Below, in pieces: positions 3,646-62,067 of a DNA stretch of 64,000 nt. Positions within the stretch are counted from its first letter, which is position 1. Each line of letters opens with the position of its first letter. The DNA lies in assembly GCF_001677475.2 (NCBI RefSeq), contig NZ_CP015229.1; one strand, given 5' to 3'. Made by a program: the position numbers and the translations under genes. The DNA comes from Escherichia coli. Its GTDB lineage: Bacteria; Pseudomonadota; Gammaproteobacteria; Enterobacterales; Enterobacteriaceae. The notes under the pieces were generated by a model that was not told the origin of the DNA, did no database searches, and saw only the letters and a program-made list of their open reading frames with translations.

Positions 3646-4446
3646 TCACCACCACGCGTGGAAGTGGTGAACCGGACCAATACCGTGACCAACTTCCAGC
3701 GTGTCGGCCTGGGCTAACGCCGATGAAAGCCAGCTTTTTGCCTCCTGTACGGTGTCAGCCCAGTTTGTATGGCGCGGGCGTAGTGCAGCCAACGCCGCAG
3801 AGAGCGTACAACCAGTGCCGTGGGTGTTTTTGGTCATAATGCGCGGTGCAGTAAATCGTTGTTCCCCCTCACGAGTAAACAGCCAGTCCGGGCTTTGCTC
3901 ATCATCCAGATGACCACCTTTCATTAGCACTGCGCCACAGCCCATCGCCAACAGCGATCGCCCTTGTTCCAGCATTTCCTGTTCGGTGCGCGCGTGTGGC
4001 GCGTCGAGCAAGGCGGCAGCTTCGGGCAAGTTTGGCGTTATTAATGAAACCTGTGGCAATAATCGACTGCGCAGCGTAGCAACCGCCGAAGGTGAAAGCA
4101 GCGGGTCGCCGCTTTTTGCCAGCATAACGGTATCAAGTACCACGTTTTTGATCTGATAACGTTGCAACCTTTCTGCCACCGCTTCAACAATATCGGTTTC
4201 CGCCAACATACCGATTTTAGTGGTGTCGATTCGCACATCGCTGAACACCGAATCGAGCTGGGCGGCGACAAAATCAGGCTCAATGCGATACACCGACTGT
4301 ACGCCACGGGTATTTTGCGCCACTAGTGCAGTAATAACTGAGCAACCATAAGCGCCAAGTGCCGAGAAGGTTTTAAGATCGGCCTGAATCCCCGCACCAC
4401 CACTCGGATCAGTACCGGCAATCGTCAGAGCGTTAATTCGTTTCAT
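3646..4446 (-). CDS. thiD: hydroxymethylpyrimidine/phosphomethylpyrimidine kinase
   Basis: 266-aa ORF, recognised as ThiD ([19 protein letters not shown] motif). Confidence 0.95.
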
Positions 4447-5231
4447 GCCTGCACCTCCGGCGTCAATTGCCAGAGCGCATCAAGGAAATGTGGAACAAAA
4501 CTGCCTGGCCCCTCGCTTCTGGCGACTGCGCGTTCTCCGGCTTGTTTCATCCAGTGACAGGCAGATGCGGCATTTCCCAGCGTATCGCCTGGTAACGCAC
4601 TACAGGCAGCGACAACCGCCGATAATGCACAGCCAGTTCCCACCACTTTGGTCATTAACGGATCGCCGCCGTGAATGCCAACGGTGCGACGACCATCGGT
4701 AACATAATCCACCTCGCCAGTGACCACGACGATTGCGCCAGTTTCCCGTGCCAGTGTTTGTGCAGCGGGTATCGCATTAGCTACGGCGTCAGTGGTATCC
4801 ACTCCCCGTCCACCATTAGCAACGCCAGCTAATGCCATGATTTCCGAAGCATTACCACGTATGGCGGTTGGCTTATGAGACAGAAGTTCCAGACAAAAAC
4901 GGCGGCGATAGTCGAGTGCACCAACCGCAACCGGATCAAGCGTCCAGGGTGTTTGAGAGCTTTTTGCTTGCTCAACGGCGGCACGCATCGCCTGTGCGCG
5001 TGGCTGCGTCAGTGTGCCAACGTTAATCAGCAACGCACTGGCGATGGCCGCAAACTGACTGGCCTCTTCGGTTTCGATAACCATCGCTGGCGATGCACCA
5101 AGCGCCAGCAAGGTATTAGCAGTAAAGGTTTGCACCACATCGTTGGTCATGCAGTGCACAAGAGGGGAATGTTGGTGAAAAAGGTGTAACGTGTGCGCAG
5201 ATTGCGCGGAACTCAGCAGGTCGACTTGCAT
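4443..5231 (-). CDS. thiM: hydroxyethylthiazole kinase
   Basis: 262-aa ORF recognised as ThiM; 4-bp overlap with thiD. Confidence 0.95.
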
Positions 5232-5365
5232 AGTTTGCTCCTGCCATAACGTGAAGAAGCAATGACCTGGTGGTCCGTGACTTCCCTACGCTGGCATTAT
5301 CCAGATCAGGTGATACGGGTATTTCTCAGCCTTCACGCAGAAGGGCACCCCGAGTCGTTTGGTTG
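5232..5365 (-). promoter_or_regulatory. TPP (thiamine pyrophosphate) riboswitch in thiM leader
   Basis: Minus-strand sequence reads ...GGGGTGCCCTTCTGCGTGAAGGCTGAGAAATACCCGTATCACCTGATCTGGATAATGCCAGCGTAGGGAA..., the classical thi-box aptamer, immediately upstream of thiM. Confidence 0.9.
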
Positions 5366-5453: not shown

Positions 5454-5726
5454 TTATTTGATATATGAATCCAGCACCTTCAGAACGACATCCAGATCTT
5501 CTTCACGTTTTAGCTCATCCCCCTGGTGAACGATGTGTTCCGTCAGATGACCTTTAATCACTTCCCGCATCAGACCGTTTACCGCGCCACGGATAGCTGC
5601 AATCTGTTGTAAAACTGCAGCGCATTCGTGCGGCTCGTCGAGCATTTTCTTGAGCGCCACGACCTGGCCCTGAATCTTACTGGCACGCGCTTTCAGTTTC
5701 TGTTTATCACGGATTGTATGAGACAT
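5454..5726 (-). CDS. rcnR: Ni/Co-responsive transcriptional repressor (CsoR/RcnR family)
   Basis: 90-aa ORF recognised as RcnR; divergent from rcnA. Confidence 0.95.
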
Positions 5727-5774: not shown

Positions 5775-5809
5775 TACTGGGGGGTAGTATCAGGTACTGG
5801 GGGGGAGTA
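5775..5809. promoter_or_regulatory. two RcnR operator dyads (TACT-G6/7-AGTA) in rcnR-rcnA intergenic region
   Basis: TACTGGGGGGTAGTA at 5775-5789 and TACTGGGGGGGAGTA at 5795-5809; G-tract flanked by TACT/AGTA inverted repeats as described for RcnR operators. Confidence 0.8.
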
Positions 5810-5846: not shown

Positions 5847-6683
5847 ATGACCGAATTTACAACTCTTCTTCAGCAAGGAAACGCCTGGTTCTTCATCCCC
5901 AGCGCCATCTTACTTGGTGCGCTTCATGGCCTGGAACCAGGGCACTCAAAAACGATGATGGCGGCGTTTATCATCGCCATCAAAGGCACCATTAAACAGG
6001 CGGTGATGCTCGGACTGGCAGCAACTATTTCGCATACCGCAGTGGTCTGGTTGATTGCCTTTGGCGGGATGGTGATCAGCAAGCGTTTTACTGCTCAATC
6101 AGCAGAACCGTGGCTTCAGTTGATTTCCGCGGTGATCATTATTAGCACCGCGTTCTGGATGTTCTGGCGTACCTGGCGCGGCGAACGCAACTGGCTGGAG
6201 AATATGCACGGGCATGATCATGAGCATCATCACCATCATCACGAACATCATCAAGACCACGAACATCACCACGACCATGGACACCATCACGAACATGGCG
6301 AGTATCAGGATGCCCATGCACGAGCCCATGCCAATGACATTAAACGACGCTTTGATGGTAGAGAGGTCACCAACTGGCAAATTTTGTTATTTGGCTTAAC
6401 CGGTGGCCTTATCCCCTGCCCGGCAGCAATTACCGTGCTGTTGATTTGCATTCAGTTGAAAGCCCTGACACTGGGCGCAACACTGGTCGTCAGTTTCAGC
6501 ATTGGCCTGGCGTTAACGCTGGTCACCGTAGGCGTTGGCGCAGCAATCAGCGTTCAGCAGGTCGCAAAACGCTGGAGCGGATTTAACACTCTCGCTAAAC
6601 GCGCCCCCTATTTTTCCAGTCTGTTGATTGGCTTAGTTGGTGTGTATATGGGCGTACATGGCTTCATGGGCATAATGCGATAA
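5847..6683 (+). CDS. rcnA: nickel/cobalt efflux membrane protein with histidine-rich loop
   Basis: 278-aa ORF; N-terminal TM segments, central HxH/HHHHHH tract (about 6207-6335), recognised as RcnA. Confidence 0.95.
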   Translation: MTEFTTLLQQGNAWFFIPSAILLGALHGLEPGHSKTMMAAFIIAIKGTIKQAVMLGLAATISHTAVVWLIAFGGMVISKRFTAQSAEPWLQLISAVIIISTAFWMFWRTWRGERNWLENMHGHDHEHHHHHHEHHQDHEHHHDHGHHHEHGEYQDAHARAHANDIKRRFDGREVTNWQILLFGLTGGLIPCPAAITVLLICIQLKALTLGATLVVSFSIGLALTLVTVGVGAAISVQQVAKRWSGFNTLAKRAPYFSSLLIGLVGVYMGVHGFMGIMR

Positions 6684-6901
6684 CTCAATCCTTTAGGCTT
6701 GCATGTTATCTTCAGCCCAGGATGATTCTTAAATCAGCTATTTCCGCTGACTCTCTGCTCGCTAAGGATGCTTTTAGGGCATCCTTTCATTTACACTTTT
6801 TACGAAATCATGGGATCACTAACAAAATATCGCTTGTCAGTTATATTGTATGGCAGGAAAGATATGCGACTGATATTACAGATCCCCAAAGTGGAGAGTT
6901 T

Positions 6902-7240
6902 ATGACCATTAAAAATAAGATGTTGCTGGGTGCGCTTTTGCTGGTTACCAGTGCCGCCTGGGCCGCACCAGCCACCGCGGGTTCGACCAATACCTCGGGA
7001 ATTTCTAAGTATGAGTTAAGCAGTTTCATTGCTGACTTTAAGCATTTCAAACCAGGCGATACCGTCCCAGAGATGTACCGCACCGATGAGTACAACATTA
7101 AGCAGTGGCAGTTACGTAACCTGCCCGCGCCTGATGCCGGGACGCACTGGACCTATATGGGTGGCGCGTACGTGTTGATCAGCGACACCGACGGTAAAAT
7201 CATTAAAGCCTACGACGGTGAGATTTTTTATCATCGCTAA
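6902..7240 (+). CDS. rcnB: periplasmic Ni/Co homeostasis protein
   Basis: 112-aa product from ATG 6902 (GGAGAG SD upstream) with signal peptide; recognised as RcnB/YohN; the longer ORF from 6722 lacks support. Confidence 0.85.
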   Translation: MTIKNKMLLGALLLVTSAAWAAPATAGSTNTSGISKYELSSFIADFKHFKPGDTVPEMYRTDEYNIKQWQLRNLPAPDAGTHWTYMGGAYVLISDTDGKIIKAYDGEIFYHR

Positions 7241-7246
7241 AAAAAG

Positions 7247-7265
7247 CCCCCTCATCATGAGGGGG
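7247..7265 (-). terminator. intrinsic terminator downstream of yehA (also abuts rcnB 3' end)
   Basis: 8-bp GC stem CCCCCTCA/TGAGGGGG with 3-nt loop; followed by T-run on minus strand. Confidence 0.7.
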
Positions 7266-7321: not shown

Positions 7322-8356
7322 TTAGTCGTATTTCACGTTGATTAATGCGGTTGCCTCCAGTGCGCCAGATTTAACTTTGTTTGTATCGTAGACGTAGTAA
7401 CTGGCTGTTATCGGAATTGAAACCGTTGTATCTGTAAGTTTTGACTTTGCCGCAATTTCTTTTAAATTTGTGTATCCTTTACTGCTGTTAGTGATATTTA
7501 AAAGTGTGACTGGCGAACCATTACTTTCAAGAATAAATCCTACGCCATTATCTTCCGCACCTTTCAGTATTGTGTTGCTGTTGGTTAACAAGTCAGAACT
7601 TGATAAATACACCTGCATTTTCCGTGATGTTTGATTTTGTTGACCTAATAAATTTTTACAACGCAGAATAATATCCCCTTTTTTACTATTTATTGTTGCT
7701 TTGTTACCTGTGGCTGGTAATTGTGAAACGGGAATACTGTCTAAAGTAATTAATAAATCGTCCGGTTTGCAGGTTGTGGTTATCGGGTTGTATGACAATG
7801 TCAGATTAAAGGAATAGACACCTGCATTTTGTGCCAATGCATTTCTGTAGCTATTTACACATGCATCCCATGACTTGCCACCTAATAAACACAGTAGAAA
7901 TTGTACTGCGGCACTCCCGCGTGTCGATGATGAAGCACTGGATAATGTCGCAACTCCATTAATCATCACTGAACCGCCGCCTCCCGCAGAAACATTTACT
8001 TTTGCATTACTGGACGCAGGTGTCACCGTTACCGAATAACCACTGGTGAAACTGGTCTGATTATTTGACAACGTGATGTTGTTTTTATTGGTCCATTCAA
8101 AATGTAAATTTAATTTAATGGTATCGTTATAAAGTCCAACAATAATATCCGACGGGCTCATAGGGGTGATAGTATTTGTACTCACGCATGACGAATCATT
8201 AAAATTATGCTCATAGGTCGCCATTTGTGTTTGAGTAAGTGCAAAATCCCCCTGAACAACCAAATTGTGCTGAACAGATAACTCACTATAACATGCCGCA
8301 TAGCTCACAGGCATAACCATCATCATTAATATAAATAGCATTATGCGAATTTCCAT
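7322..8356 (-). CDS. yehA: fimbrial adhesin-like protein (chaperone-usher system)
   Basis: 344-aa ORF with signal peptide; last gene of AT-rich fimbrial operon. Confidence 0.85.
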   Translation of the reverse strand: MEIRIMLFILMMMVMPVSYAACYSELSVQHNLVVQGDFALTQTQMATYEHNFNDSSCVSTNTITPMSPSDIIVGLYNDTIKLNLHFEWTNKNNITLSNNQTSFTSGYSVTVTPASSNAKVNVSAGGGGSVMINGVATLSSASSSTRGSAAVQFLLCLLGGKSWDACVNSYRNALAQNAGVYSFNLTLSYNPITTTCKPDDLLITLDSIPVSQLPATGNKATINSKKGDIILRCKNLLGQQNQTSRKMQVYLSSSDLLTNSNTILKGAEDNGVGFILESNGSPVTLLNITNSSKGYTNLKEIAAKSKLTDTTVSIPITASYYVYDTNKVKSGALEATALINVKYD

Positions 8357-60838: not shown

Positions 60839-62067
60839 CGAAAGATCTTTCGATTACTTTTTGCGGCGTGAAGTTTCCCAACCCGTTCTGCCTCTCTTCT
60901 TCGCCGGTAGGCAACTGCTATGAGATGTGTGCCAAAGCCTACGACACTGGCTGGGGCGGCGTGGTGTTTAAAACGATCGGCTTTTTTATCGCCAACGAAG
61001 TCTCGCCGCGTTTTGATCATCTGATGAAAGAAGATACCGGTTTTATCGGCTTCAAAAATATGGAGCAGATTGCCGAGCATCCGCTGGAGGAGAATCTGGC
61101 CGCCCTGCGTCGGCTGAAAGAAGATTACCCGGACAAAGTATTGATAGCTTCAATCATGGGCGAAAATGAGCAGCAGTGGGAAGAGCTGGCGCGTCTGGTG
61201 CAAGAAGCTGGCGCCGATATGATCGAGTGTAACTTCTCCTGTCCGCAAATGACATCTCATGCGATGGGTAGCGATGTCGGGCAAAGCCCGGAGCTGGTAG
61301 AAAAATATTGTCGGGCAGTAAAACGTGGTTCCACGCTGCCAATGCTGGCGAAGATGACGCCGAATATCGGTGATATGTGCGAAGTGGCGCTGGCGGCGAA
61401 GCGCGGCGGCGCAGATGGCATTGCGGCGATTAACACCGTTAAATCCATCACCAATATCGATCTTAATCAGAAAATCGGTATGCCGATCGTTAACGGTAAA
61501 TCGAGTATTTCCGGATATTCCGGTAAAGCGGTAAAACCGATCGCCCTGCGCTTCATTCAGCAAATGCGCACCCATCCAGAGCTGCGCGATTTCCCGATCA
61601 GCGGTATCGGCGGCATTGAAACCTGGGAGGATGCGGCGGAGTTTTTATTGCTCGGCGCAGCGACGTTGCAGGTGACCACCGGCATCATGCAGTACGGGTA
61701 TCGGATAGTGGAAGATATGGCGAGCGGGTTGTCGCATTATCTTGCCGATCAGGGATTTGATTCGTTGCAGGAGATGGTAGGTCTGGCGAATAACAATATT
61801 GTCCCGGCGGAAGATTTAGACCGCAGTTATATTGTCTATCCCCATATCAATCTCGATAAATGTGTTGGCTGTGGACGCTGTTATATTTCCTGTTACGACG
61901 GCGGTCACCAGGCGATGGAATGGAGTGAGAAAACCCGTACACCGCATTGTAATACCGAGAAATGTGTTGGTTGCCTGCTTTGTGGACACGTCTGCCCGGT
62001 GGGTTGTATTGATCTCGGAGAAGTGAAGTTTAAGAAGGGAGAGAAAGAACACCCGGTAACGTTGTAA
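60832..62067 (+). CDS. preA: NAD-dependent dihydropyrimidine dehydrogenase subunit PreA
   Basis: 411-aa product from Met 60832; DHODH-like TIM barrel and C-terminal 4Fe-4S ferredoxin motifs (CVGCGRC, CVGCLLC); overlaps preT 3' end. Confidence 0.93.

Follow-up and report, generated by a model that had tools for sequence, protein, structure and literature searches.

The locus considered here is a histidine-rich tract inside the rcnA gene of Escherichia coli, and the question that it raises is whether the tract differs in length between strains, how such differences arise and whether they bear on the handling of nickel and cobalt. [quoted passage not shown] All positions refer to the window, which is the whole stretch of 64,000 nucleotides that was analysed. 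The gene and its neighbours were located as follows.

5847 to 6683, plus strand: rcnA coding sequence, 278 amino acids plus stop, NicO-family nickel/cobalt efflux protein (from the open reading frame list, NCBIfam and Pfam)
5454 to 5726, minus strand: rcnR, divergent nickel/cobalt-responsive repressor (NCBIfam NF011613, RcnR equivalog, 197 bits)
6902 to 7240, plus strand: rcnB, gene for the periplasmic partner (Pfam PF11776, RcnB, 67.8 bits)

On family match and gene context, the open reading frame at 5847 to 6683 is RcnA. The NCBIfam model NF007454 ("nickel/cobalt efflux transporter") spanned residues 1 to 278 with a score of 560.4 bits (cut-off 195), the Pfam NicO model (PF03824) matched with 237.5 bits, and every matching E. 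coli genome annotates the gene as rcnA. [quoted passage not shown] According to PMC3391293, Rodrigue et al. (2005) showed that the K-12 allele confers nickel and cobalt efflux and resistance.

The tract and its internal repeats were delimited by codon count, by an exhaustive scan for perfect tandem repeats and with Tandem Repeats Finder.

6207 to 6296, plus strand: core of the histidine-rich tract, HGHDHEHHHHHHEHHQDHEHHHDHGHHHEH, codons 121-150, the variable part of the locus (codon count)
6297 to 6335, plus strand: GEYQDAHARAHAN, 39 bp, ordinary sequence that is not of low complexity
6225 to 6242, plus strand: perfect tandem of CATCATCAC x2 (HHH HHH), 9-bp unit (perfect-tandem scan)
6228 to 6298, plus strand: imperfect 18-bp periodicity of HHHDHE-like units, 3-3.6 copies with a 78-80% match (Tandem Repeats Finder)

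The low complexity of the tract lies at the level of codons and not in one repeated unit. Histidine accounts for 20 of the 30 residues encoded by codons 121-150, compared with 6 of the 248 in the remainder of RcnA, and this content is far from chance. The tract codons were CAT (12), CAC (8), GAA (3), GAC (2) and one each of GAT, GAG, GGG, CAA and GGA, such that 27 of 30 specify His, Asp or Glu. The sequence-only reading had described about 130 bp at 6207 to 6335 as almost entirely CAT, CAC, GAA and GAC codons. The peptide that it quoted was exact and in frame from 6207; the extent was too large, since a peptide of 30 codons ends at 6296, and the low-complexity part is therefore 90 bp. Over the full 129 bp, the four codons named make up just 27 of 43. 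The segment from 6297 to 6335 was kept in all of the alleles that were read, with the exception of the O157-type variant GDNEEYQ, and leads into a helix (residues 156-170) in the AlphaFold2 model.

The term microsatellite-like, also used of the tract, proved to be a loose one; low complexity was confirmed, but a unit of 1-6 bp in perfect or near-perfect tandem was not found by either program. Tandem Repeats Finder reported imperfect periods only (9, 12, 18 and 21 bp; 71-90% match; 2-4 copies), and the perfect-tandem scan detected no unit of 3-6 bp in the window tract. Within the 64 kb the tract is nevertheless distinctive, in that Tandem Repeats Finder gave a score of at least 50 to just one other array, and CATCATCAC x2 is the sole perfect tandem of at least 18 bp with a unit of at least 3 bp. 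No Rfam match was obtained at the tract on either strand.

Variation in the length of the tract between strains, which had been predicted from the window alone with invariance named as the refuting outcome, was evident across E. coli. A megablast search with the window rcnA located the gene in 5,365 of 5,426 complete E. coli genomes, and two samples were drawn from these at even intervals, with about 59 genomes in each. In the first sample (59 full-length matches), rcnA was 825 bp, the K-12 length, in 49 genomes, 824 bp in two and 840 bp in two, and single genomes had genes of 798, 807, 822, 849, 852 and 858 bp. In the second, for which a 214-bp K-12 segment was the query, 51 of 59 genomes had the K-12 length and the others differed from it by -21, -15, +6, +15, +21, +24, +27 and +57 nt. 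Both samples thus place the modal length in about 86% of genomes, with about 14% deviating from 825 bp; these frequencies are estimates from about 120 of 5,365 genomes, uncorrected for phylogeny and for sampling bias toward clinical clones.

Seventeen alleles were read, comprising 12 full genes and five tract segments. In all 17 the length differences fell between the conserved anchors WLENM and (E/G)YQDAH and were multiples of three. With the window included and a frameshifted copy of the K-12 allele left out, the 12 full alleles had 12 distinct tracts of 57-117 nt, and their flanks were 0-44 SNPs apart in 741 nt. Representatives of E. coli RcnA in the protein database had tracts of 27-53 amino acids, and several contained an internal tandem duplication, of 9 residues in P0025, 12 in P0022 and 18 in P0019. 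Among the alleles, M19 carried a perfect 18-bp duplication (CATCATCACGATCACGAA x2), and the CE10 and ST648 alleles carried (CACGAG)3 and (CACGAG)4. Overall, the E. coli tract ranged from 18 to 53 residues.

Repeats can be mis-assembled, and of the two sampled genomes with an 824-bp rcnA the one examined was annotated as frameshifted, which raises the idea that the low complexity of the region led to errors in sequencing or assembly and that the length differences are artefacts. Almost no credence can be given to this idea. The 1-bp deletion in the 824-bp record was located in an A5 run at about position 101 of the coding sequence, far from the tract, whereas all tract differences were multiples of three or six and consisted of whole repeat units. 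Furthermore, a sequencing read is longer than any of the tracts (57-141 nt), and PCR fragment sizing has shown the same variation for two decades. An on/off locus that is phase-variable by frameshift was also considered and was rejected; every difference in tract length was a multiple of three, and the sole frameshift examined lies in the A5 run away from the tract.

Repeat turnover was evident in the O157:H7 clade, in whose alleles the tract contains a perfect (GACCAC)n array, with n = 4-11 over all O157-type alleles and 5 to 11 copies in O157:H7. With a 241-bp O157 query and a strict E-value limit, 266 genomes with an O157-type tract were recovered, and half of these matched the query exactly. 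The copy numbers implied by segment lengths in an evenly spaced sample of 59 among these 266 genomes were as follows.

235 bp: n = 5, 5 genomes
241 bp: n = 6, 33 genomes
247 bp: n = 7, 16 genomes
259 bp: n = 9, 2 genomes
265 bp: n = 10, 2 genomes
271 bp: n = 11, 1 genome

Whole GACCAC units were confirmed by reading the sequences for n = 4, 5, 6, 7, 9 and 11. Three alleles on the O157 backbone (n = 4, 6 and 7) were compared in full, and there were no SNPs between their flanks. As judged by these alignments, the O157 array is a true VNTR that changes inside a recent clone.

The variability of the tract is already known, as it is a routine strain-typing site in E. coli O157, Salmonella and Klebsiella. 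The primers of the MLVA locus VNTR-19 were matched to the window at the following sites.

6129 to 6164, plus strand: forward primer site of VNTR-19 (O157-19 / TR7), 2 mismatches in the window
6394 to 6421, minus strand: reverse primer site of VNTR-19, 2 mismatches in the window

In O157:H7 rcnA the forward primer site lies immediately 5' of the tract, with 36 of 36 positions matched, and the reverse primer site immediately 3' of it, with 28 of 29. By primer position, then, the window tract lies between the published VNTR-19 (PulseNet) primers and is the same locus. PMC8461963 prints the primer pair and lists amplicons of 283-357 bp; the product predicted from the window is about 293 bp long, although it would hold no countable hexamer array. 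According to PMC3768571, TR7 and O157-19 are one locus and its unit is 6 bp. The clade medians published for O157-19 are 5-7 copies (PMC10062581), and the mode of n = 6 in our O157-type sample agrees with them. In Salmonella enterica, the typing locus STTR5 (Sal16) has the unit CACGAC and lies inside yohM, which is rcnA (PMC5183578, PMC1781188, PMC3391293). Since typing of this kind dates from the early 2000s, variability of the tract carries little weight as a discovery. A search of the literature on O157 VNTRs and nickel brought up nothing in which the gene was named. For the generic E. coli MLVA loci CVN001-CVN017, neither primers nor gene locations were found in PMC3407997 and PMC3877011. 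CVN014 was considered as a candidate for the rcnA tract and was set aside as probably a different locus, as it varies far more within ST131 than does rcnA length in the genome samples.

The window allele itself did not occur among the 5,426 complete E. coli genomes. The exact protein is, however, recorded as E. coli RcnA in 67 blocks of a public assembly index, and the one public contig that was compared at the DNA level did not differ from the window in rcnA or on either side of the gene. The allele is thus real but rare, being on record in public assemblies and absent from the complete genomes. Its best full-length match was an 840-bp allele with 97.9% identity overall and about 99% identity in the flanks, a difference that illustrates how tract indels dominate identity-based comparisons of rcnA. 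Compared with its relatives, the window allele had one GACCAC, the 9-bp x2 repeat and a terminal histidine run that was 6 bp shorter (HHHEH as against HHHHHEH).

The more perfect units a repeat contains, the less stable it is generally considered to be. With one GACCAC and a perfect 9-bp repeat of only two copies, the window allele probably slips much less readily than do the arrays of O157 or Salmonella, and a repeat of this kind may undergo hardly any slippage. The description of the tract as slippage-prone, made in the sequence-only reading, consequently suits the locus, as exemplified by the O157 arrays, more than it suits the window allele, in which the hexamer array has been lost and only CATCATCAC x2 is left.

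In another account of the series, window-like tracts no longer slip and are ancient, decayed duplications that have been shuffled by homologous recombination as an old and stable polymorphism. This account is quite possible, if not the favoured one. It is consistent with the 18-bp units of the window being merely 78-80% alike and the sole perfect repeat being 2 x 9 bp, with the recurrence of the exact window protein in the assembly index and the identity of the compared contig, and with the association of tract types with flank haplotypes, the O157-type tract being accompanied by 24 downstream SNPs. Since about 86% of genomes have one tract length, the variation that is not of the O157 or (HE)n type may go back to an old polymorphism that is tied to lineages and has been spread by recombination, and not to recurrent slippage. 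Against a wholly ancient origin stand the recent perfect duplications in non-O157 backgrounds (the 18-bp x2 of M19, the 12 and 18 residues of P0022 and P0019, and the (CACGAG)3-4 arrays of CE10 and ST648); because of these duplications, new events must still be arising. The two accounts are complementary more than they are exclusive.

Slippage, the mechanism that we infer for the series as a whole, would operate as follows. The tract is built of decayed 18-bp units (HHHDHE-like) together with His-Asp and His-Glu hexamers, and whole units would be gained and lost by replication slippage or by unequal exchange between short direct repeats. Only in-frame products survive, because the three C-terminal membrane helices encoded downstream must stay in frame, and the outcome would be the alleles of differing length and sequence that are seen across the species. 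Where the hexamer array is perfect, as it is in the O157:H7 clade with (GACCAC)n and in Salmonella with CACGAC, the number of copies changes on epidemiological time scales, and it is this change that accounts for the use of the locus in typing as VNTR-19/O157-19/TR7 and STTR5. The window allele is a rare and probably comparatively stable member of the series.

The tract also leaves open frames on other registers of the DNA, as listed below.

6099 to 6380, minus strand: antisense open reading frame, 93 amino acids, TTG start, by-product (open reading frame list)
6142 to 6321, minus strand: second antisense open reading frame, 59 amino acids, by-product (open reading frame list)
6214 to 6399, plus strand: out-of-frame open reading frame, 61 amino acids (MIMSIITIIT...), by-product of the low-complexity tract (open reading frame list and stop-free runs)

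The frame at 6099 to 6380 had been called a spurious product of the tract, and this assessment was borne out. Its 93 codons are open from the TTG start, and the predicted product is hydrophobic, so that a real small protein overlapping rcnA is conceivable, but this is extremely improbable. The frame is codon-aligned with rcnA, such that its codons are exact reverse complements of the rcnA codons; those of the His, Asp and Glu codons (ATG, GTG, GTC and TTC) give no antisense stops and yield a product rich in M, V, F and I. Antisense stops come solely from sense TTA, CTA and TCA codons, of which there are seven in the 279 codons of rcnA, and the open span is bounded by a sense TCA (6099) and a sense TTA (6387). 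The resulting stop-free gap of 95 codons is close to the chance expectation. There was no Pfam or NCBIfam match for the frame and no promoter-like site upstream of it on the minus strand, and its length shifts with each tract allele. For annotation, the antisense and out-of-frame reading frames over the tract should not be called genes.

At the protein level, the tract corresponds to the central loop of RcnA, an Ni(II)/Co(II) efflux protein of the inner membrane. An AlphaFold2 model built on a 40-sequence alignment (mean pLDDT 80.3, pTM 0.70) placed residues 123-155 in a low-confidence coil (pLDDT about 49-60) between helices at 83-122 and 156-170, and membrane helices were well predicted on both sides. 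The loop is predicted to be disordered and to lie between the third and fourth membrane helices. Its borders are rich in K and R, and it is probably cytoplasmic. Capture or buffering of metal by the loop in the cytoplasm is a putative role that we infer, as no solved structure of the family was found by sequence or by fold. A PDB sequence search returned only His-tags and a histidine-rich stretch of the cobaltochelatase CbiX, all compositional matches, and a Foldseek search with the RcnA model gave nothing below E = 1.6, with a top TM-score of 0.42 (CcdA). Among 76 distant full-length representatives of the family, the loop measured 11-247 amino acids with a median of 15 His; from this comparison, histidine-richness is conserved whereas length and sequence are not.

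It had also been proposed that loop length tunes the affinity or capacity of the exporter. In its general form the proposal is that length and composition alleles are selected for nickel and cobalt efflux rate, selectivity and cytoplasmic buffering, with the arrays acting in a contingency-like manner that allows fast re-tuning, and this was judged unlikely. A slightly lower probability again was assigned to the fuller statement that the series is not neutral, that loop length and His/Asp/Glu composition set efflux, selectivity and buffering, that hexamer arrays are held in the middle of their range by selection and that rare alleles are locally adapted. The loop remains rich in histidine at every length in all of the alleles read, and also, although its length varies greatly, in almost every member of the wider family; this agrees with tuning, as does the consistently expanded loop of cable bacteria (PMC11247825). 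At STTR5 in Salmonella, mid-range copy numbers predominate and long alleles only shortened in vitro (PMC5183578), but the authors of that work ascribe the bias to directional mutability. Likewise, the restriction to in-frame changes is explained by the downstream helices and not by tuning, and a single length is common to about 86% of the E. coli genomes. Selection on copy number by metals, or an effect of copy number on RcnA stability or resistance, has been raised as speculation (PMC3391293, PMC5183578, PMC6760104); in the papers found no length allele was linked to a phenotype, and a literature search for experiments on loop length and nickel or cobalt handling found none. The present evidence is neutral on tuning and speaks neither for nor against it. 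The natural allele series of 18-53 residues is ready material for a test of loop length against nickel and cobalt handling.

The loop and its repeats resemble several known systems. One likeness is to cation-diffusion-facilitator (CDF) transporters such as plant MTP1, divalent-metal exporters which possess a disordered, histidine-rich cytoplasmic loop that is thought to bind or buffer substrate. This is a functional analogy only, as the protein family and fold are unrelated to those of RcnA. Loop-deletion experiments exist for CDF proteins; none for RcnA were found in the literature.

Another counterpart is the RcnA homologue of cable bacteria, which also has a central histidine-rich loop that is predicted to be cytoplasmic and that differs in size between lineages (PMC11247825). 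That loop is 100-123 amino acids long, contains 33-53 His and is fixed within its clade, whereas the window tract has 30 residues and 20 His. According to the same paper, RcnA of E. coli may function either as an exporter or, by way of the loop, as a chelator.

Among the repeat loci, locus 27 of the Klebsiella pneumoniae MLVA scheme appears in a table listing as a 6-bp VNTR within a putative rcnA gene, with 0-19 copies and, at 81.7, the highest diversity value in the table excerpt (PMC3948817). It thus shares the gene and the unit length with the tract examined here; the unit is a different one, written there as CATGGT.

VNTR-19 is the same locus as the window tract, and in O157 alleles it encodes in-frame His-Asp repeats inside the RcnA loop. 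The O157 alleles differ in having a perfect (GACCAC)n array; the head-to-tail 6-bp array that characterises VNTR-19 is not present in the window allele, which has a single GACCAC (n = 1) and the 9-bp x2 tandem on another backbone (HGHDHE..., with GEYQ in place of GDNEEYQ).

STTR5 lies in the homologous gene, likewise in the part that links the two membrane halves of the product, and its unit is the window hexamer in another register (His-Asp). It is much longer and more mutable. Copy numbers of 7-26 were found in five S. Typhimurium strains, single-unit changes occurred in vitro within 50 generations (PMC5183578), and 54 nt encoding (HD)9 were lost after passage in chickens (PMC6760104); the window tract, in contrast, is a degenerate mosaic.

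The rcnA allele at 5847-6683 (+) was found in none of the 5,426 complete RefSeq E. coli genomes that were searched with rcnA, in which the closest allele was 97.9% identical. A DNA-identical copy was present in the draft assembly GCA_016118575.1, and 67 blocks of a public assembly index listed the exact sequence of the encoded RcnA protein.

In two of the other E. coli alleles, the His-rich tract carried a second hexamer array, (CACGAG)n, which encodes (His-Glu)n; there were three copies in the allele from strain CE10 (L005) and four in that from ST648 (L017), and these two alleles had the shortest tracts seen. Some genomes had a disrupted rcnA gene (records H220, NZ_CP138397.1; H60, NZ_CP047455.1; and L010, NZ_CP045277.1). 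In strain 81EVA the match ended beside a transposase of the IS3 family. ZF31 retained no more than the initial 111 bp of rcnA, adjoining yehA, and in LAU-OXA there was a 1-bp deletion within an A5 run. No rcnA match was obtained in 61 of the 5,426 complete genomes.

Variation in the central loop was also observed among RcnA homologues in the protein database. One subfamily, whose members include the representatives P0135, P0137, P0138, P0143, P0146, P0160, P0177 and P0187, among others, has an insert of approximately 110-150 residues in this loop that is not His-rich and that has the conserved motifs IDTGHG..., FE.GVPP.FRL, IPEPH.F and H.H.Y. P0135 had 74% identity to the RcnA protein of the window. 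A Pfam search revealed no family that covered the insert.

The features that were located around rcnA and elsewhere in the window were as follows.

5266-5362 (-), TPP riboswitch (RF00059), score 71.2 bits (gathering cut-off 54.3)
5775-5789, G-tract inverted repeat TACTGGGGGGTAGTA, rcnR-rcnA intergenic region
5795-5809, G-tract inverted repeat TACTGGGGGGGAGTA, rcnR-rcnA intergenic region
7247-7265, hairpin of high GC content, CCCCCTCATGATGAGGGGG, bordered by runs of A and T
61458-61508, tandem array of period 26, 1.9 copies, 80% match and 11% indels (Tandem Repeats Finder)

The two intergenic repeats, which contain homopolymer runs of G6 and G7, match the published RcnR operator motif, TACT-G6-N-AGTA. 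The riboswitch lies upstream of a 262-aa ORF (4443..5231, minus strand) that we take to be thiM. Apart from the rcnA tract, the array at 61458-61508 was the sole array in the window with a Tandem Repeats Finder score of at least 50.

Downstream of rcnA, the mechanically called ORF over rcnB extends from 6722 to 7240 (172 aa); within it, the ATG at 6902 is where the RcnB domain begins, together with an N-terminus that resembles a signal peptide, MTIKNKMLLGALLLVTSAAWA, and the 60 codons 5' of this ATG are probably untranslated. The hairpin at 7247-7265, which was called by the scan on the minus strand only, looks like a terminator; it is located between rcnB and a convergent 344-aa ORF (7322..8356, minus strand) that is annotated as yehA in other genomes.

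When RcnA was compared with solved structures, the top sequence matches (PDB chains 8i56_A and 6m25_A) were to CbiX, a sirohydrochlorin cobaltochelatase, in its His-rich segment NHEHHHEHSHHHHHHHHHEHEK, and to affinity tags. The likeness of RcnA to these sequences is compositional. As a separate observation, CbiX, like RcnA, handles cobalt.
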